NCBI RefSeq assembly: GCF_003334785.1
Contig: NZ_QOWV01000022.1
Origin: Escherichia coli
GTDB lineage: Bacteria > Pseudomonadota > Gammaproteobacteria > Enterobacterales > Enterobacteriaceae
Reading direction: 5' to 3' (one strand)
Length of the DNA stretch: 54,561 bases
The position numbers and the translations under genes are program-made. The notes beneath the pieces were generated by a model, which ran no database searches, was not told the origin of the DNA, and saw only the letters and a program-made list of their open reading frames with translations. This document shows, piece by piece, positions 18,744 to 35,654 of this stretch. The first letter of the stretch is position 1, and the number at the start of each line of letters is the position of its first letter.

Positions 18744-18830
18744 GCCCGGATGGTGGAATCGGTAGACACAAGGGATTTAAAATCCCTCGGCGTTCGCGCT
18801 GTGTGGGTTCAAGTCCCACTCCGGGTACCA
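18744..18830 (+). tRNA. leuZ: tRNA-Leu (UAA), long variable arm
   Basis: GCCCGGATGGTGGAATCGGTAGACACAAGGGATTTAAAATCCC...GGGTTCAAGTCCCACTCCGGGTACCA; the T-stem differs from the K-12 sequence as I recall it by two compensatory changes. Confidence 0.85.
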
Positions 18831-26056: not shown

Positions 26057-28657
26057 TCAGACTGGAAGACAGAATGTCGGATATTTACGGGCTATGATAT
26101 CCATCAGTGACTTCATTCGCGGTGTTACAGAACTAAATTTCATTTGGGGTATTTTTGCTCTTACCGCATTTTTTACATCAGTCACCGTTACTGAATAGCC
26201 TTCTGACGTCAGCCATTCAGCAACCTCTTTACAGGAATAACTTTTTTTATCTTTCAGCATAAGCCCCCATTGGCACTGAGTCAGCGCCCGGAGAAATAGT
26301 CTGACTAAAATATCATCACTACGTTTGCTTCCGACTTTTAGTTTCATATCAGAAAATACCGTCCGGCAATAGAGAAAATCACACCAGTCATCCCAGTCAG
26401 CCAGGGTCTTCAGTGTATGCGTTTGCCGCCAGTCGTCGAAAAGAGAGCGTTGCTGCAGAGCCTCTTCCATATTATCCCATGGGCGGGAAGACATCAGTAA
26501 ATGCCCTTCATTCATGGCGGGCTGTACGGGCTGGCGTTTGAAATCGAATTCCAGATTAAGACGGATATCCTGTTCCCGGGATACCAGATCGCTTTCCGAC
26601 AGCCACATCTCACGCGTTGATATCAACGTACTTCGGGATAACGTCTGACCGGGTAAACGATTAAGGTAAAGATCTACCATATAGTCGTTATAGTCACTGC
26701 GTGGAATATCGGCAGGAGGTTTGACGCCAGCCCTGGCATGAACAACAGGTTTTCCCTGAATAGCTCTATAGGTTAACTGCCCCCGGGTTTTCATGGCGAT
26801 AAGCTGGCTGACCTCATGCTTACATGTCAACATTGATGAACCCGGATCAACAATATCGCACAGCGACTGGAAGCGGGAAGACAGTGGACCGCTCATGTTT
26901 ATCTTGTTAAGTGGGCAATTTGTCAAAAAGCCATCGGTTGTGACGCTGACAACCGATGAATCAGAAGGCAAAGCATTCATGAGTTCCCCGGCAACGGCGC
27001 GGATAAATCCCGTCACATGCGCAGCAAAGAATGGCTGAGTAACCGATGATGGTGGGAGGGATCTGTTTAATCCACGGGCAGTATCAAAGGCGGTTTTGGC
27101 GCGAAGGCCCTGAGCAAGTTTGCCATAAAGCGAGTTGCCAATTTCTTTCCAGAATTTCTCCTCCAGAGAACCTTTAATATGGCGATTACGGTTCTCACGG
27201 ACCTGTTGAACAAAGGGAAGAAACACCGATGTTGATTCGCTGTTATGTGGGGAGGTGTCACAGATCCAGGGGACGATGATCCCATTATGGATCGTCATCT
27301 CTGCCCCGAGCGACAGAGCAAGTTCGATTTCAGGTGCCGTTGCCCATGATTCGCCACTTAATGGAAAGAATAACCCATATTGATCGGTCCGAACCGGCAG
27401 GCTGGGATAGGGAACTGATTCCGGGAACCGAAATGTGACAAGCGCAAATCCCATCACATGCCCACAGTAATCGTCCGGATTTTTACTGAGGCGGATGTTT
27501 CCGTAATCGGGTATGAGGATATCTAATAGCCCGGTGGTATACGCTCCAGCCAGATCGTAGTCATACCAGTGATCAGACGGTGTAACCCCCATCATAAAAC
27601 ACTCATTGCGTCCGCCGTGGTAACAGTTGATCGGGAACGTTTCAAACAGCTCTCTTGAAGGAACACTGGCGGGGTTTTTAATCGTCCGGAATGCCTGTTT
27701 CTCCGTGAGCCAGAGTTCACGGGTTTTAATGTGTGTCCCAAGGCAGACTTCGGGAGACATATTGTTTTCTTTAAGTGTTTTGGTGAACCGTGAAACTGCC
27801 ATCGCCCCGATGGTGGCGGGGACACGATCAATCATCAGCTCCCGGGCGCAAAAATTGCGAACCTGTAAAGCATAACGAACCGCAATCTCGGCATCCCGCA
27901 GAGCATAGGCTTCAAACCCTGCTCTGTCCCCCAGAAGATATTCACGCATATTGGTTATGGAATAAGGTGCAGGAATGGTGAGTTTGGGAAGACCCAGTAA
28001 TTCACCACATTCAGCCAGACCCATACCCCCGGGAGTGATAAGCAGTGTATCGATGAAAGCTACGTTACTGCAACGCGGAGGGGAAGTTCGTTTGTCAAAC
28101 ATTATCTGTTCAGTCTTTACGCGACGTTCCTGCTGTTCATCAAAATCGATACCGTAACGATTTTTGAAGCTGCTGACAGTACCGCGTATTCCTTTCAGAA
28201 GAATTTTGTAGTCTGACCAGAAATTGGCAAAGGAGGCGATATCCGCACGAATGAAATGCGCATATATATTAATAATACCGGGCCATTTTGTAATCACACC
28301 CGTTTCAAGAAGCGGTGTAATCGTTTGACAGAGAAAGTCCTTAAAAGACAGCCGGGATTTTTTCTGTGAGTCAGGTGGATAGATAATGTTCGATATACCT
28401 GTATTATCGGGTAAGACAACATAACTCTGATATGACAGAATATCATTCTGTCGTGTTTCAGGGTTGAAAACATATTCGGTATCAAAACCGATATGGAGCG
28501 TCAGGTCGTTTGAAATCACAGACACGTTTTTTGATGCAGGTGGCATCACAGGATAATCATCAAGCGTTTTAGGTCTTTTACGATTGAGCGCTGGCTCTGA
28601 AGTCACGGACTGATACCCCGAGGCGGCAGCGAGGATATCCTGCAAATTATGGCTCAT
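26057..28657 (-). CDS. Family B DNA polymerase, primer-independent type (piPolB-like), with 3'-5' exonuclease domain
   Basis: Start at MSHNLQD (GGAG upstream). Exo I-like FDTEYV, candidate motif A region YDYDLAGAYTTG, motif B KEIGNSLYGK (Kx3NSxYG) and motif-C-like VTTDGF. Assignment from motif recognition, not a search. Confidence 0.7.
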   Translation of the reverse strand: MSHNLQDILAAASGYQSVTSEPALNRKRPKTLDDYPVMPPASKNVSVISNDLTLHIGFDTEYVFNPETRQNDILSYQSYVVLPDNTGISNIIYPPDSQKKSRLSFKDFLCQTITPLLETGVITKWPGIINIYAHFIRADIASFANFWSDYKILLKGIRGTVSSFKNRYGIDFDEQQERRVKTEQIMFDKRTSPPRCSNVAFIDTLLITPGGMGLAECGELLGLPKLTIPAPYSITNMREYLLGDRAGFEAYALRDAEIAVRYALQVRNFCARELMIDRVPATIGAMAVSRFTKTLKENNMSPEVCLGTHIKTRELWLTEKQAFRTIKNPASVPSRELFETFPINCYHGGRNECFMMGVTPSDHWYDYDLAGAYTTGLLDILIPDYGNIRLSKNPDDYCGHVMGFALVTFRFPESVPYPSLPVRTDQYGLFFPLSGESWATAPEIELALSLGAEMTIHNGIIVPWICDTSPHNSESTSVFLPFVQQVRENRNRHIKGSLEEKFWKEIGNSLYGKLAQGLRAKTAFDTARGLNRSLPPSSVTQPFFAAHVTGFIRAVAGELMNALPSDSSVVSVTTDGFLTNCPLNKINMSGPLSSRFQSLCDIVDPGSSMLTCKHEVSQLIAMKTRGQLTYRAIQGKPVVHARAGVKPPADIPRSDYNDYMVDLYLNRLPGQTLSRSTLISTREMWLSESDLVSREQDIRLNLEFDFKRQPVQPAMNEGHLLMSSRPWDNMEEALQQRSLFDDWRQTHTLKTLADWDDWCDFLYCRTVFSDMKLKVGSKRSDDILVRLFLRALTQCQWGLMLKDKKSYSCKEVAEWLTSEGYSVTVTDVKNAVRAKIPQMKFSSVTPRMKSLMDIIARKYPTFCLPV

Positions 28658-28703
28658 AGTTAACTCCGAAAAAATGCCGGGAGCTGTGTCCCGGCATAAA
28701 GAA

Positions 28704-29342
28704 TCAAGATTTAATAACATTTACTACAGATTTGAAAATATCGGTTTTGCGTGATTCATCATCTGCATGGATAAATGAAACGAGGTTCCTGCCTGCTTTA
28801 ATCAGGATGCCACGTTGCGTCTTTTCCACAGATGGGGTGACGCGTGCAGATAACAGACAATTTTCATGTAACTGAAGAAACTTTTTTGAGGCGTAGCCGC
28901 CATGCAGTCGGGCTTTAATTTCATTATACATATCATCAAGAGAACCGGGTTCTCCTGATTCACTCAATACCGGATAGCCCTTCTTATCAAAAAGGCTGAG
29001 GATAGATTTACCATCATGTTCGAACAAGGTAACACCGTAAATGTATTTCATTCGAAAGGTGAGGGCGTCGGTGGTGTAGATCTCCTCCTGACAACTGAAA
29101 TTTTTGAGACGCCTGGCTAATTCATTAAAAACAGCACGAGCAGTAGCCGTGTCCTGCAGGGTGTAGGTATAAAGTACGAAGCCATCTGTGCCGATGAGCT
29201 TTACTAAGTTGTCCATAATCGTGATAGCGAGAACTAATGCAAAGGACAGATATTTTTCATCGTTGTCTACAGCTGTGCTTGCTGATTCGGGAATAATGTT
29301 CAGTGCATTATTAGCGTTATTTTCCGTGTTCTTAGTAACCAT
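28704..29342 (-). CDS. Hypothetical protein (212 aa) in an operon with the excisionase-like gene and the polymerase
   Basis: ORF between the Xis-like gene and the polymerase, same strand, short gaps. Confidence 0.5.
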   Translation of the reverse strand: MVTKNTENNANNALNIIPESASTAVDNDEKYLSFALVLAITIMDNLVKLIGTDGFVLYTYTLQDTATARAVFNELARRLKNFSCQEEIYTTDALTFRMKYIYGVTLFEHDGKSILSLFDKKGYPVLSESGEPGSLDDMYNEIKARLHGGYASKKFLQLHENCLLSARVTPSVEKTQRGILIKAGRNLVSFIHADDESRKTDIFKSVVNVIKS

Positions 29343-29532
29343 TTATATCACCTTTAAGTTTGTTTTGACGATGTGCATTTTCCCACTCAACAATATCGTC
29401 AAGAGAGAATCGTATAGCCCGCCCAATTCTGATGAAGGGCGGGAGTTTTCCGGGGTTGCGCGATATATCTGACGCAACCGTGGATGCAGAAAGATTAAAT
29501 CTTTCTGCGAACTGCTTAATGGTTAAATACAT
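29332..29532 (-). CDS. Excisionase / AlpA-like HTH DNA-binding protein
   Basis: 66 aa; LTIKQFAERFNLSASTV..IRIGRAIRFSLDDIVEWE is typical of the Xis/AlpA/MerR-like HTH family. Confidence 0.6.
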   Translation of the reverse strand: MYLTIKQFAERFNLSASTVASDISRNPGKLPPFIRIGRAIRFSLDDIVEWENAHRQNKLKGDINGY

Positions 29533-29674
29533 AAACCTCCGGTTTCAGAGAATAAGAAGCCACGCGGATTTAATATCAATCCACATTCTGTGATGACTTA
29601 ATGCAGGGCCCTGCAGAAGCATGCAATGACAATACCGTCCTTAAACGAGTGTTGCATCAATCACGAATCACAGA

Positions 29675-30811
29675 TCATAGGTTCATTTTTGTGTCATAAC
29701 TTTCTATGACCTGAGAAACCACTGCGTGTGATGTCGCTGCATTGTGAAAAGCGTAGCGACGGGTCGCCGTGAGTGAATGGTGATTTAGCAGATGGGAAGC
29801 GATTGCAATATCCCCGGTCGCCTGTAGTATCCGGGTGGCAAAGGTACGGCGCAGGTCATGCATCCGCAGGTTATCAATGTTGGCATCCCGACAAATACGG
29901 GCAAAGGTTGCACGCGGATATGCCAGAGGGCGGGCATTGTCGGTTAGTTGTGGAAAAATGTAAGTTTTGCTGAGCATCAGGTCCTGCTGGCACTGGACAA
30001 CTGCAATGGCTGGAGGTGCAAGTGGGCAGGTGAAAGGGTGTCCGGACTTTGTATCAGGCAGTATGAGTTGATGCATATCCGGGTGCCAGTACTCCCATTT
30101 CAGGGTACATACCTCACCAATACGCATCCCCGTATAAAGAGCAAGCAATATAGAATCAGCTGCCGGTGTTTGCAGCGCTGTTGCCGCGTCAATAAAGCGC
30201 GGGATTTCTGTCGCTGACAGCGTGCGATAGCGAATGTTATTTTCTTTCAGATAGCGGACATGTGACATCGGGGAATGTGTGATCCATCCAGCACGTACTG
30301 CCAGAGAGCATATTTTGGACAATATTGCGAGGATTCGGTTTACTGTTGACGGACGTAATTTTTCCCGTAAGCCAGCAGCATATTGTTCCAGTTCTCCTGC
30401 CGTGATGTCGCGAAGTTGCCGCTTGCCCCAGAACGGGCGAACGTAGAGGTTGAGTTTTGACAACTCTGACTGAGGACTCTTTTTATACAACTGCAAATCC
30501 GGTAGCCACAGGTCATTGATGGCCTGTTCCACAGTGAATCGACGGGACTGAACCGCAAGACGATTTTTATCAGCAAGCAGTTTCATCACATGCTGACGGG
30601 CATCCTCAACGCAGAGCTGAGGGAACTGACCCAGGGTTTCATATATACGCTGATTGTTTATAGTGGCACGAAAGGCCAGCGTGATCCGATTGGGATACAC
30701 CAGAGCACGCAGGTTTTGGCAGTGAATATCACGGTATTCCTGACAACCCGTGAGGGGATGTGGAAGTTGGTGAATTGATTTGTTGCTGAAACGCAGATCC
30801 AGAATAGGCAT
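29675..30811 (-). CDS. Tyrosine recombinase (XerC/phage-integrase family), second recombinase of the element
   Basis: 378 aa; catalytic-domain motifs RIGEVCTLKW, HDLRRTFATR, and a Tyr in TRRYAFH. Confidence 0.8.
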   Translation of the reverse strand: MPILDLRFSNKSIHQLPHPLTGCQEYRDIHCQNLRALVYPNRITLAFRATINNQRIYETLGQFPQLCVEDARQHVMKLLADKNRLAVQSRRFTVEQAINDLWLPDLQLYKKSPQSELSKLNLYVRPFWGKRQLRDITAGELEQYAAGLREKLRPSTVNRILAILSKICSLAVRAGWITHSPMSHVRYLKENNIRYRTLSATEIPRFIDAATALQTPAADSILLALYTGMRIGEVCTLKWEYWHPDMHQLILPDTKSGHPFTCPLAPPAIAVVQCQQDLMLSKTYIFPQLTDNARPLAYPRATFARICRDANIDNLRMHDLRRTFATRILQATGDIAIASHLLNHHSLTATRRYAFHNAATSHAVVSQVIESYDTKMNL

Positions 30812-30954
30812 CGTATTTCTCCTGTAAATGACACTGGAAAAATACGATGTGAGGTTATAGTCTGCCAGTTACAGCTTTCACAGTTCATCAGGTGAAAAAA
30901 CGCAGACTCGGATATAATGGCAACACAATTCCATGTCGCCATTATATTAAGAAA

Positions 30955-32085
30955 CTACAGTTTCATGATCTTGTTCGCTATTTTTTCGAAGTAAACCTCA
31001 TTCTTAAGAAGAGTGATATTGTTTGTTTGAACACCCAGACCACTGGAGGTTGACTGGAAGTTGAGTGAACCACTTATCACTGTGGACTTTCCTGATAAAA
31101 AGGAAATCAACTCCTTGGAAGATGGTGCCCACTCAGGGTTTAAGAGTAATGCAATATAGATATATGTCTTACGAAGCAATTGTTCGATATCTTTTTTATG
31201 CCCTGTAGTGTTTTGCTTACCTTTAATGCAAATAGATTTGATTATGAACTCATCAGGGCTGGTTAAAGGCGTTTTAAACTCACTCAGTGATTCATCGTTA
31301 CGAATGACTTCATAAGGCAGCATAGATAAAATGATCAATGCAATCATTTTAGGATGATAAAGGTAGTTATCACGAATGATTTTTCCTGCCTTCATTGTAT
31401 TGAGCGTTGTTTGAATAAATACAAAGTGATATTCAGAGCAAAAGTAACAAAACACAAGCCAGGATAGGTCAATGGCTGGAATGTTAATATCCTTAGGTAG
31501 TTTGTTTAGCCAGTATTCAGACTTCAAAAAGGTCCTGATTTCAACAGTATATTCATGCATTTTTGCGCTGAAATCAAGCATTGCTACTTGACCTGATTGT
31601 TCCGTAACTGTGTGGTCTATAAATGTTAGTGTATTGCACATTTTATCCAGCGTGTTTTGAAAACAAGAAAGGAGTTCGGCATTATTATTACCATTAACCG
31701 CAGATGAAAGTTCAGTTTTAATAAATGCATCCAGTAGCATACAGATTTCTTTCGGAATTACATTTTTACGGGATTGCTGTGAATAGAAATGTACTGCCAG
31801 TAAATTAAAGGCAGTGCACTCCTTTTTTAACCATTGTTCGAGCACTGGGACGTGCTGAAAAAAATTGATATGCTTAGCAGTAGATGCTGATGGAGATAGT
31901 ACATGAAGAATATCTACAGCAGGCTTCATTTGCAATATTTGATCGGATTCGGTAGTCGTCATTAGTTCCAGTAATTGCTGTTCAGAAAATAGTTTAGACA
32001 GGTGATCAATGTCTTTTTGGTATTGATTAAGTTTTGTTAAATTCCCCGGTATACGGGTTACATTGTTTTTCATTTTCTCGAACAT
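30955..32085 (-). CDS. Hypothetical protein (376 aa), AT-rich ORFan
   Basis: Long uninterrupted ORF in roughly 30-35% GC DNA; no motif recognised. Confidence 0.5.
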   Translation of the reverse strand: MFEKMKNNVTRIPGNLTKLNQYQKDIDHLSKLFSEQQLLELMTTTESDQILQMKPAVDILHVLSPSASTAKHINFFQHVPVLEQWLKKECTAFNLLAVHFYSQQSRKNVIPKEICMLLDAFIKTELSSAVNGNNNAELLSCFQNTLDKMCNTLTFIDHTVTEQSGQVAMLDFSAKMHEYTVEIRTFLKSEYWLNKLPKDINIPAIDLSWLVFCYFCSEYHFVFIQTTLNTMKAGKIIRDNYLYHPKMIALIILSMLPYEVIRNDESLSEFKTPLTSPDEFIIKSICIKGKQNTTGHKKDIEQLLRKTYIYIALLLNPEWAPSSKELISFLSGKSTVISGSLNFQSTSSGLGVQTNNITLLKNEVYFEKIANKIMKL

Positions 32086-32846
32086 AATTTTATCCTCGTT
32101 TAAATTATTACACTGATTTAAAAAGTAGCATGTCGTGTTAGCGAGGTAATCCTAAAACGTGAATGGCAGCAGGGGCAAGCTTGAATCTGCGTAAGGATAT
32201 GGCTTAAATTTAATGGTGTAATCAGTGAGTTAGAGGCTTATAGCCATTTAAATACAATAAGTTATGATGATATGTGGCGGGTGTAAATCGGTTAGTTTTT
32301 ATGTTTAAAATATGAGCGTTGTGAGATTTGAGATATGATGGTTTTTAAATTACATACAAGTTACCCCTGATGATCAGTATTAATACCAGAATGATACATG
32401 CGAGCAGCACCCAATCCTGTACTATTGATGATGACTATACAAGGCTGAAACTTTTAGTCGTATGTTGCCAGGAGGATTAATGTCCACAAGGCCCAGATAG
32501 AATGATTTCTCAGATATTAAAGTTGAAACTTATTAACTATGTGAGAGGCTGATATTTATTCAGTCTCTCATTTGTTTTTATCGTTTTAAAGTTAAAAGGA
32601 AATAAATAATGCCTTCCGCCGATGAATCAATGTGCTGATTTCCCTCAAATCAGCCTCAATACTACCAACATCACCAAAGACTTCACCTCTAATCTCACTT
32701 CGATTTTTCATGAAATTGGTGCTTAATAAGCTTTCTTTTTTTAATGCCATTAATTTTGGTTTTATATCGTTATAGAAATGCTTACGGCTTACCCTGATGC
32801 TATGAATCGAGTAGTAAACTGTTTTATACATCAAAAATATAAGTAA

Positions 32847-33824
32847 CTAGCCGAGAAGATATTCTTTTTCAATGTATTTATATTGAGAGGATTTTTCGCG
32901 TTTCGCCAGGTAGAAAACATGAGGTGCGATGATGGTGGGGATAAAATCCAGTGCTGGAGAGGTTTTGGTTTTTTCTGTTTCTCTTCCGGATTGAAGATGT
33001 TGAAGTACAGAGTATGCAATGCTTAAAATTATGGCGTTACTTATATTATTAATTGCAGTTGGGTAAATATGCAGATTGCTTATCAATTCTGAAAGGCAAA
33101 GTAAAACACCAGTGATGTTGGGTTTTCTGCCAGAGATTGTGGTGCTGTTGAAAATGTGACGATTCTTACGACTTATATTGACAAGTTTATGAGTGCAGAA
33201 CTCTATATGTTCGACGATTTTATCTTGACTATTTTTAATGTATTTTGAAATGTTAGTGATCCGGCCATTCAACGTTAGTTCATCAAGCAATATATCATTT
33301 TTAATATTGCGAATTTCATCGCAATGTTCACATTGAGAAACTATCTCATGTAATACATAACTCGAAGTATTGCGGGGTGACGTTGATATGTAATCTAAAA
33401 TAGAAGGCTCGATTTTGATTTTTTGTTTGTATTTTTTAATGCACTGTTTGATTGTTTTTTGTAGAGTATTTGAGATGTGTTTTTTATATTCTTTTAGAAA
33501 ATCTTGCTCTAAAAAGAGTGAGGAGAAGATCAACTGCTGGCGAGATAATTTAATCTCAGGCTTGATCAATTTAATCCGAAAAACTCTTCCCTCCAACTCA
33601 TAGCTGAACATGGAAGATAAGTCATAGTGGGGTGATAAATGTTCGAGTAACGACATTCGTGTATTCATTAGCCGCTTGAATTTATGGTCAGCATACATAA
33701 GTGTTTTTTTTATTTGCTCATCGTAAAGTGGGCCGATAACGCAATTAGCAATACTCATACTATCCGGAGACCTCCAGTCAACAGGGGAATCACATTGACG
33801 GCCACCATTACAATCAAAGGGCAT
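32847..33824 (-). CDS. Hypothetical protein (about 300-326 aa), AT-rich ORFan; start uncertain
   Basis: Long ORF; first ATG at 33824, alternative ATG at 33758 preceded by GGAGG. Confidence 0.45.
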   Translation of the reverse strand: MPFDCNGGRQCDSPVDWRSPDSMSIANCVIGPLYDEQIKKTLMYADHKFKRLMNTRMSLLEHLSPHYDLSSMFSYELEGRVFRIKLIKPEIKLSRQQLIFSSLFLEQDFLKEYKKHISNTLQKTIKQCIKKYKQKIKIEPSILDYISTSPRNTSSYVLHEIVSQCEHCDEIRNIKNDILLDELTLNGRITNISKYIKNSQDKIVEHIEFCTHKLVNISRKNRHIFNSTTISGRKPNITGVLLCLSELISNLHIYPTAINNISNAIILSIAYSVLQHLQSGRETEKTKTSPALDFIPTIIAPHVFYLAKREKSSQYKYIEKEYLLG

Positions 33825-33868
33825 CAACGTTGCCGATTATGGATCATGTCAGCTTCACACACCAGAAT

Positions 33869-33912
33869 GGGTGATATATGGATCATCATTACCCCAACGG
33901 CAGTTTTACACC
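33869..33912 (+). repeat. Copy 2 of the roughly 45-bp direct repeat, about 220 bp upstream of hsdM
   Basis: See copy 1 at 23082..23125. Confidence 0.7.
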
Positions 33913-34130
33913 ATGGCTAATATGGATGCTATCTTACTAAGATAATTGGTTTTTAGCGAGTGACGAGCCAGGTTGTGTCAGTCTGTCTCATGTCGATATT
34001 ACGGGGATGATGCAAACCTGAATGCTGCGATATTGGCGTGTCAGGGGAGGCATCTTACGGTATCATTTACCGCAATTTTTAAGATGCAAAGCCCTGCATC
34101 GCTAGCTTTTTCTTTAGACCAGGATGATTC

Positions 34131-35654
34131 ATGAACGACAAAATCAGTCAGGACACGATCAACAAAGCCCTGTGGGCCGCGTGTGATACGTTCCGTGGCA
34201 CCATCAGTGCTGATACCTATAAAGACTTTATCCTTACCATGCTGTTCCTCAAGTACATTTCAGATGTCTGGCAGGATCACTATGACGAATACAAAGAACA
34301 GTATGGCGATGCGCCGGAACTGATTGAAGCGATGATGGCCAACGAGCGTTTTGTACTGCCAAAAAGTGCCAGCTTTTATGCGCTGTACGAACGCCGCCAT
34401 GAGCCGGGTAACGGTGAGCGTATCGATCAGGCTCTGCATGCAATCGAAGAAGCCAACGGAACCAAACTGAAAGATGCCGGGAAAAGCGTGTTCCAGGATA
34501 TTTCGTTTAACACTGACCGCTTGGGTGAAGAAAAACAGAAGAACACCATCCTGCGTCAGTTGCTGGAAGACTTCGCCGGTGAAGATCTCAACCTGAAGCC
34601 AAGCCGTGTAGGTACGCTGGACGTTATCGGTAATGCCTACGAATATCTGATCAAAAACTTTGCCGCCAGCGGTGGGCAGAAAGCCGGGGAGTTCTATACC
34701 CCGCCGGAAGTTTCGGACCTGATTGCAGAACTGCTCGATCCGCAACCGGGTGATACCATCTGCGATCCAGCCTGTGGTTCCGGTTCATTATTGATGAAGT
34801 GTGGGCGTAAAATTGTCTCCGGGCATGATAGTCGTAACTATGCATTGTTCGGTCAGGAAGCGATCGGTTCTACGTGGTCGCTGGCGAAAATGAATATGTT
34901 CCTGCACGGGGAAGACAACCATAAAATCGAGTGGGGCGATACCATTCGTAACCCGAAGCTGCTCGATAAAAATGGCGACCTGATGCTGTTTGATATCGTG
35001 ACCGCTAACCCACCGTTCAGCCTCGATAAGTGGGGCCATGACGAGGCCGAGAACGATAAGTTTGGCCGTTTTCGTCGCGGTGTACCGCCGAAGACTAAAG
35101 GAGATTACGCTTTTATCTCGCATATGATCGAAACCCTGAAACCGGGAACTGGCCGTATGGGCGTAGTTGTGCCACACGGTGTGCTTTTCCGTGGCTCCAG
35201 CGAAGGTAAAATTCGCCAGAAACTGATCGACGAAAATTTGCTGGATGCGGTAATTGGTCTGCCGGAAAAACTGTTCTACGGTACGGGGATTCCGGCTGCG
35301 ATTCTGATTTTCAAAAAGCAGAAAGTTGATGACAAGGTGCTGTTTATCGATGCCAGCCGTGAATTCAAGGCAGGTAAAAACCAGAACCAGCTCAGCGCAG
35401 AAAACATCGAGAAAATCGTCAAGACCTACCGTGATGGCGATAACGTCGAGAAATACGCCTATCTTGCCAGCCTGAAAGAGATTCAGGACAACGATTACAA
35501 CCTTAATATTCCACGTTATGTTGATACTTTCGAGGAAGAAGACGAGATTGATTTACTGGTCGTGCGTGCTGAACGTGAGCAACTGAAGGTGGAACTGGCG
35601 AATCTGGAAACGGAGATGGCGGGTTATCTGAAGGAGTTGGGTTATGGTGCCTAA
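34131..35654 (+). CDS. hsdM: Type I restriction-modification system methyltransferase subunit
   Basis: 507 aa; AdoMet-binding DPACGSGSLL and catalytic NPPF (TANPPFS) of N6-adenine methyltransferases; followed by hsdS. Confidence 0.9.
   Translation: MNDKISQDTINKALWAACDTFRGTISADTYKDFILTMLFLKYISDVWQDHYDEYKEQYGDAPELIEAMMANERFVLPKSASFYALYERRHEPGNGERIDQALHAIEEANGTKLKDAGKSVFQDISFNTDRLGEEKQKNTILRQLLEDFAGEDLNLKPSRVGTLDVIGNAYEYLIKNFAASGGQKAGEFYTPPEVSDLIAELLDPQPGDTICDPACGSGSLLMKCGRKIVSGHDSRNYALFGQEAIGSTWSLAKMNMFLHGEDNHKIEWGDTIRNPKLLDKNGDLMLFDIVTANPPFSLDKWGHDEAENDKFGRFRRGVPPKTKGDYAFISHMIETLKPGTGRMGVVVPHGVLFRGSSEGKIRQKLIDENLLDAVIGLPEKLFYGTGIPAAILIFKKQKVDDKVLFIDASREFKAGKNQNQLSAENIEKIVKTYRDGDNVEKYAYLASLKEIQDNDYNLNIPRYVDTFEEEDEIDLLVVRAEREQLKVELANLETEMAGYLKELGYGA

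Follow-up and report, generated by a model that had tools for sequence, protein, structure and literature searches.

A perfect 10-bp inverted repeat lies between the second integrase gene of an Escherichia coli mobile island and the gene that precedes it, and the question raised by this locus is to which of its two neighbours the palindrome belongs: is it an operator for expression of the recombinase, or a terminator for the upstream gene? Both roles had been suggested in an earlier note on the same DNA – a stretch of 54,561 nucleotides, referred to here in its entirety as the window. A check of the sequence bears out the repeat and its placement in the intergenic region (143 bp, 30812-30954) between the recombinase start and the stop of the upstream 376-aa gene. 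The interval first reported for it, 30902-30938, was about 10 nt too far to the left and cut off the right arm: the palindrome is formed by ATATAATGGC / GCCATTATAT at 30912-30921 and 30938-30947, and its spacer measures 16 nt rather than 17. On the plus strand ATATAATGGC occurs once, at the first of these positions, and GCCATTATAT, at the second, is its reverse complement. A repeat search extends the arms to 14 nt (30912-30925 and 30934-30947), which are 93% complementary and 8 nt apart. Both flanking genes are on the minus strand, along which the order is the 376-aa gene (TAG stop at 30955-30957), 7 nt, the hairpin described below, 101 nt, and the integrase start.

The window represents an E. 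coli pipolin, a defence island that encodes piPolB and lies at a tRNA-Leu gene. Published E. coli pipolins have tRNA-Leu as their site and keep a conserved core on the tRNA side, the defence cargo being at the distal end (PMC7385651, PMC11551731). The window resembles the 'bimodular' enterobacterial pipolins of these papers in having the tRNA-Leu, an adjacent integrase, DUF2787, WYL, piPolB and an excisionase-like gene, and again in having a second integrase with excisionase followed by defence cargo that includes a type I R-M system; the words 'inverted repeat', 'terminator' and 'promoter' occur in neither paper. The island begins with the first integrase, followed by the DUF2787, DUF726 and WYL regulator genes and by those for proteins of 887 aa (piPolB), 212 aa and 66 aa (HTH/excisionase-like) and the second integrase; after it come the 376-aa gene, a 410-aa gene, the type I R-M system and further defence genes. 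Matches of the 887-aa protein to DNA_pol_B_2 and to PHROG polymerases are weak, and in RefSeq relatives the open reading frame is named 'hypothetical protein' only. An annotated relative (CP062876) has the island beside tRNA-Gly/Cys/Leu, downstream of pgsA, and strain 2014EL-1346-6, a pipolin carrier in PMC7385651, is also among the matches to the window region found here. Within the window there is no second copy (at least 12 nt) of the tRNA-Leu 3' end: the distal att site presumably lies beyond it, and the palindrome was rejected as an internal att for the same reason.

The gene upstream of the palindrome encodes an orphan protein of a family confined to Enterobacterales. Pfam, PHROG, NCBIfam, PADLOC and the PDB gave no match to it, and AFDB no informative one; its AlphaFold model (pLDDT 75.8, pTM 0.69) is all-helical, and the only structural matches are to generic bundles and to uncharacterised homologues of the protein itself. 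The core pipolin genes of PMC11551731 do not include the orphan (376-382 aa) gene. Eleven homologue loci were fetched, ten of which reach the downstream genes, and in all ten the order is the same: a 375-382-aa gene, an integrase of 373-378 aa, an HTH protein of 62-66 aa, a protein of 200-220 aa and a piPolB of about 866 aa. These loci come from Phytobacter, Edwardsiella, Salmonella, Serratia, Lelliottia, Enterobacter, Hafnia and Buttiauxella, to which pattern scans based on the integrase leader add Citrobacter and Intestinirhabdus. Every fetched enterobacterial pipolin locus that reaches far enough (L002, L004-L016) has the orphan gene immediately upstream of the IntP2-type integrase and on its strand.

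Table 1. Position and strand of the features discussed (numbered from the first nucleotide of the window).
Feature	Position	Strand	Remarks
tRNA-Leu (taa)	18744-18830	plus	presumed island integration site, beside integrase; PMC7385651
piPolB, 887 aa, pipolin hallmark	26057-28720	minus	PolB motifs DTE(80), YALRD(272), KEIGNSLYG(525), TTD(594), KTRG
Xis-like (AlpA-family, HTH_17) protein, 66 aa	29332-29532	minus	domain matches
Tyrosine recombinase, 378 aa ('second recombinase' of the earlier note)	29675-30811	minus	matches IntP2-type integrase of pipolins, PMC11551731
Second inverted repeat/RNA hairpin	30809-30849	minus	pairs CAUCGUAUUUUUCC with GGAGAAAUACGAUG
Conserved block TGATGAACTGTGAAA (core ATGARCTGTGAAA)	30876-30890	minus	near-invariant upstream of integrase; outside hairpin
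Hairpin	30912-30947	minus	RNA AUAUAAUGGCGACAU-GGAAUU-GUGUUGCCAUUAUAU; 15-bp stem, 6-nt loop at 30927-30932
3' arm of perfect 10-bp repeat	30912-30921	minus	reads GCCATTATAT; then CCGAGTCTGCGTTTTTT, without immediate U-tract
5' arm of perfect 10-bp repeat	30938-30947	minus	reads ATATAATGGC; begins 7 nt past TAG stop
Orphan all-alpha protein gene, 376 aa	30955-32085	minus	hairpin after its stop; co-segregates with allele class

Whether the palindrome is more than chance was judged from shuffled sequences and from other genomes. Perfect inverted repeats of at least 10 bp with a spacer of 3-30 nt number 8 (distinct) in the window, against 1.42 ± 1.34 (maximum 6) in 100 dinucleotide shuffles. While this class of repeat is enriched, the count alone leaves chance possible for any single case; it is conservation in other genomes that raises the palindrome above it. 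A search of the window for further copies of the arms, or of the whole hairpin, gave only the site itself and near-matches at chance level.

Read as RNA of the minus strand, the palindrome becomes the base of a longer stem, of which 4 pairs are G-C or C-G, 9 are A-U and 2 are G.U. The five pairs beyond the perfect ten include the two G.U pairs, formed only in minus-strand RNA; on the opposite strand these are A/C mismatches, and the sense hairpin is therefore more stable than its antisense counterpart. Folding energies place sense ahead of antisense in all five sequence variants: -19.1 against -14.5 kcal/mol in the window, -21.5 against -14.6 in L009, -18.8 against -14.6 in L016, -17.9 against -10.2 in L019, and -16.3 against -15.9 in L005. 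A search of Rfam 15 across 30500-31300 gave no match at E ≤ 1.

Conservation within E. coli was assessed in 5426 complete genomes. A 40-nt query over the hairpin is present in 245 of these, being identical over the 40 nt in 230, 95-99% identical in 4, and replaced by a variant in the remaining 11, where GGCAGCA...UGUUGCC stands in place of GGCGACA...UGUUGCC, as in Citrobacter koseri. The hairpin occupies one place per genome (median 1, highest 2), and the wider region, which matches 293 of the 5426 genomes, is chromosomal every time. The bases just downstream of the hairpin are polymorphic (CCGA[A/G]TC[T/A]G[C/A][G/A][T/-]). Here, 5 nt 3' of the hairpin, the window carries a private SNP: position 30907 is C on the plus strand (G in the transcript, CCGAGUC), and in all aligned sequences it is T (CCGAAUC). 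Over 30900-30960 none of the 245 complete E. coli carriers matches the window perfectly.

Beyond E. coli, the hairpin is found in every member of the 376-aa allele class of the upstream gene, in five distinct versions, and its core persists in the pipolins of Citrobacter, Phytobacter, Edwardsiella and Salmonella. In the last three genera (the Phytobacter group) the upstream gene is 68-69% identical at the protein level and the remaining spacer cannot be aligned, yet the core AAUGGCAGCA / UGCUGCCAUU is kept, following the pattern AATGGC-RR-CA...TG-YT-GCCATT; the outer four A-U pairs of the 10-bp arms are lost. Relative to the window the core stem has undergone three substitutions, each of which keeps pairing: pair 21-36 changes from G.U to A-U, while pair 22-35 is A-U in the window, G.U in the C. 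koseri type and G-C in the Phytobacter group. In the loop, 3 of 8 positions have changed among variants. As a test of covariation the signal is weak – there are five distinct variants only, a single pair has changed in both its bases, and 147 of 500 shuffles match this result. Genome and metagenome collections were also scanned by DNA pattern, keyed on the integrase leader rather than on the hairpin; these scans gained Citrobacter variants and gave no new intermediate hairpin variants. Two of the eight matches in the genome scan (to a Desulfobacteraceae and a Corynebacterium genome) are chance, and plasmid and phage collections held no match to 30700-32100. The earlier note had made its suggestions depend on conservation of the palindrome in related elements: it is kept in near and mid-distance relatives, and absent in a more distant allele class.

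This distant class shows with what the hairpin travels. The islands of E. coli NCTC9967 and LSN03-016011/A are homologous to the window across integrase and leader as far as about 30898, beyond which stands a 380-aa homologue of the upstream gene (42% identity) without the hairpin. The NCTC9967 integrase is 98.4% identical to that of the window and the Xis-like protein has the same accession (WP_000281555.1). The Phytobacter group presents the converse: the integrase is 67.5% identical, the upstream gene belongs to the same allele class, and the hairpin is present. The hairpin co-segregates with the allele of the upstream gene, and not with integrase or Xis; it thus belongs to the 3' end of that gene rather than to the recombinase module. 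Folding of the spacers after the stop codon draws the same division: compared with shuffles, the window spacer that holds the hairpin has z = -5.6 and those of every member of the 376-aa allele clade range from -4.2 to -5.6, while in the 380-aa allele clades z runs from -1.5 to +1.0, with no significant structure. For the pipolin as a whole the hairpin is therefore dispensable. The homology break itself is sharp (about 30898-30905 in L002 and L003), the sequences on its two sides being the 98.4% identical integrase and the 42% identical upstream gene; it points to two deep allele classes of the orphan gene and to a recombination junction some 10-15 nt downstream of the hairpin. One further locus, L009, is a mosaic in which a window-type hairpin is joined to an NCTC9967-type leader.

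Of the features expected of an intrinsic terminator, the window copy has a stable sense stem-loop (15 bp, -19.1 kcal/mol) only 7 nt past the TAG. It does not have the U-tract, for which the definition used here asks at least 5 U among 8 nt, beginning no more than 2 nt past the stem: its tail reads CCGAGUCU (CCGAGTCT; after the stem CCGAGUCUGCGUUUUUU), and the U-run begins 11 nt away. For this reason a consensus terminator scan of 29000-34500 reports no site at 30912-30947. The Phytobacter-group orthologue, on the other hand, has a T-rich UCUAUCUUUU directly after the stem and passes the same scan, with a 10-bp stem, an 8-nt loop and the tail TCTATCTTTT. Tail scores reflect the difference: where an ideal U-tract scores 5.1, the Phytobacter group reaches 2.2-2.6 and the window 0.13-1.45. 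The suggestion of a terminator for the upstream gene is thus upheld in part, by the sense hairpin close behind the stop codon and by the orthologue that passes the scan; it is not upheld by the window copy, which has no U-tract and fails.

On balance we consider it probable, if only somewhat so, that the palindrome is the base of a sense RNA stem-loop that constitutes a terminator-type 3'-end element of the orphan 376-aa gene, and we infer that this hairpin ends or stabilises transcripts. What is shown are its structure and strand asymmetry, where it lies, that it is conserved, and that it is linked to the upstream gene rather than to the integrase. It would be terminator-like in origin, and would still be so in the Phytobacter group; in the lineage of E. 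coli and Citrobacter the U-tract would have been replaced by bases that lengthen the stem. Lacking the U-tract, the hairpin of the window's lineage may act as a weak or leaky terminator, as a 3'-end stabiliser (a barrier to 3' exonucleases), or as both. In so doing it would partly insulate the downstream int-xis-piPolB genes from read-through, and would set the mRNA level of the upstream gene apart from theirs. The closeness of the stop codon counts against a terminator-type role: at a distance of 7 nt, a terminating ribosome would be expected to cover the 5' arm. A more elaborate proposal is that the hairpin separates the orphan gene from the int-xis-piPolB operon conditionally, as terminator or insulator, with read-through set either by translation of the upstream gene (whose stop codon lies just 7 nt before the stem) or by antitermination through the HTH protein named after AlpA. 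If true, it would amount to a switch for excision and replication of the element in one pipolin lineage; we regard it as very improbable.

The main alternative to the terminator-type reading is that the palindrome does nothing: it could be a legacy of shared ancestry in a lineage that is young and diverges slowly, or what remains of a decayed terminator. We think this unlikely. It would accord with the roughly 1.4 such repeats expected by chance per window, with carriers that are mostly near-identical E. coli islands, with covariation that is not significant, with the absent U-tract, and with other pipolin clades that manage without the hairpin; it sits poorly with a core kept across some 32% of protein divergence where the rest of the spacer is unalignable, with stem substitutions that preserve pairing in three cases out of three while three of eight loop positions changed, and with a sense-strand fold that is the more stable in all variants. 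An operator, at which a dimeric regulator (the Xis-like/AlpA-like protein, the integrase or the WYL regulator) would bind the dyad and control the integrase, has become improbable in light of the linkage data. The perfect 10-bp arms do supply dyad symmetry, and the site lies 101 nt upstream of the integrase start and beside the Xis-like gene cluster. But a protein that is unchanged should still have its cognate site beside it – which argues equally against a recombination site – and the palindrome is missing in NCTC9967 and LSN03-016011/A, next to an integrase that is 98.4% identical and the same Xis accession, while it is present next to an integrase that is only 67.5% identical. Nor does the window contain another copy, or a half-site above chance; the arm centres are 26 bp (about 2.5 helical turns) apart, and would thus face opposite sides of the helix; the substitutions run via G.U, which keeps RNA pairing and not DNA symmetry; and no consensus promoter is predicted at the palindrome. 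The suggestion of an operator for recombinase expression is disfavoured, moreover, by what is conserved upstream of the integrase in every clade: the ATGARCTGTGAAA block and a hairpin over the ribosome-binding site and start codon, and not the palindrome.

Two further readings would also tie the palindrome to the integrase. The 5' arm contains a perfect TATAAT (minus strand, 30946-30941), whose A2 and T6 are kept in all variants (TATAAT, TATTAT, TACAAT), and which could be taken for the -10 box of an integrase promoter. The hexamer is, however, expected about 27 times in the window (2 x 54561/4096); there is no -35 box at 16-18 nt, and manual comparison of the variants shows no conservation in the candidate -35 region; and the element is missing in clades with a nearly identical integrase. 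A scan limited to consensus sequences finds no sigma-70 promoter in 30812-30954 on either strand, and we hold a promoter here to be quite improbable. Scarcely credible is a recombination core site for the adjacent tyrosine recombinase, despite a geometry like that of dif or loxP – 15-nt arms matching at 13 of 15 positions (2 mismatches) around a 6-bp GGAATT – next to the integrase and near the place where homology between pipolin variants breaks. The window has no partner site, and neither arm occurs in islands whose integrase is 98.4% identical; the break falls some 10-15 nt beyond the 3' arm rather than in the central spacer, and the gene beyond it is a diverged homologue in the same position rather than a swapped cassette. 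The main value of the analysis is in this sense negative: neither an integrase operator nor a recombination site should be annotated at the palindrome.

Compared with known systems, the hairpin is like an intrinsic terminator in being a sense stem-loop directly after a stop codon, with an orthologue in Phytobacter, Edwardsiella and Salmonella whose T-rich tail lets it pass the scan; it is unlike one in lacking, in the window, a U-tract within 2 nt of the stem, and in having an A-U rich stem (4 of 15 pairs are G-C or C-G). As a stable hairpin without U-tract between co-directional genes it is also like REP and other intercistronic stabilising hairpins. Newbury and colleagues reportedly found, in 1987, that REP stem-loops stabilise upstream mRNA, and a hairpin of this kind could block 3'-to-5' exonucleases and so set differing levels for the genes on its two sides. 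Unlike REPs, which have many dispersed copies per genome, the hairpin is single-copy: with one place per genome and no other copy in the window, it is not part of such a repeated family.

For antitermination the precedent is AlpA of Pseudomonas aeruginosa, which lets RNA polymerase bypass an intrinsic terminator (PMC7969949, PMC9371919). The window is similar insofar as a small HTH protein named after AlpA is encoded downstream of a terminator-like hairpin; it differs in that no AlpA-binding element was identified, the resemblance being in family name only. The link was set aside, the 66-aa pipolin protein being without sequence match to any solved chain. The hairpin is best regarded as a new instance of a common type of element, one restricted to its lineage, within a mobile element that has already been described; as an ordinary 3'-end hairpin of an orphan gene it is of low interest by itself.

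Better starting points for the control of pipolin excision are the orphan gene and two features of the integrase leader that are conserved across Enterobacterales. One is the ATGARCTGTGAAA block, which is near-invariant in the pipolins of Escherichia, Citrobacter, Phytobacter, Edwardsiella, Salmonella, Serratia, Lelliottia, Enterobacter, Hafnia and Buttiauxella. The longer TGATGAACTGTGAAA block has no second copy in the window, and a regulator-binding site or promoter element is more plausibly sought there than in the palindrome. The other is the second inverted repeat, with perfect 10-bp arms (CATCGTATTT / AAATACGATG) that extend to 17 nt at 88%. In the predicted RNA fold an upstream anti-sequence buries both the Shine-Dalgarno sequence of the integrase (GGAG, 30822-30819) and its ATG (30811-30809). 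All nine distinct pipolin leaders that were compared retain this hairpin through conservation of the sequence itself, with no compensatory changes, and its fold suggests translational repression of the integrase. A search for usable literature on the regulation of P2-type integrases found none.

Several minor observations concern the genes around the hairpin. In L016, L019, L021, L027 and L030, and not in the window, the orphan gene's 3' end carries tandem copies of an 8-bp unit, (GTCGTGAA)n, numbering from 2 to at least 7; the carriers are C. koseri, C. amalonaticus and E. coli variants of the F5656C1 type. Since the 8-bp unit is not a multiple of 3, a change in copy number shifts the reading frame. 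In F5656C1 no CDS is annotated at the repeat region, and an IS1 lies nearby. The 410-aa gene (32592-33824, minus strand) has a TAG nonsense codon at 32847-32849 (codon 326, Gln to stop) and is intact in CP062876; the window copy is therefore probably a pseudogene or encodes a truncated protein. Just past the stop of this gene lies a 12-bp hairpin (32541-32571) with a T-run, TTTGTTTTTAT, on the plus strand and thus antisense to the gene: it would be either a terminator of antisense transcription or a sense hairpin without U-tract, in style like that at 30912-30947.
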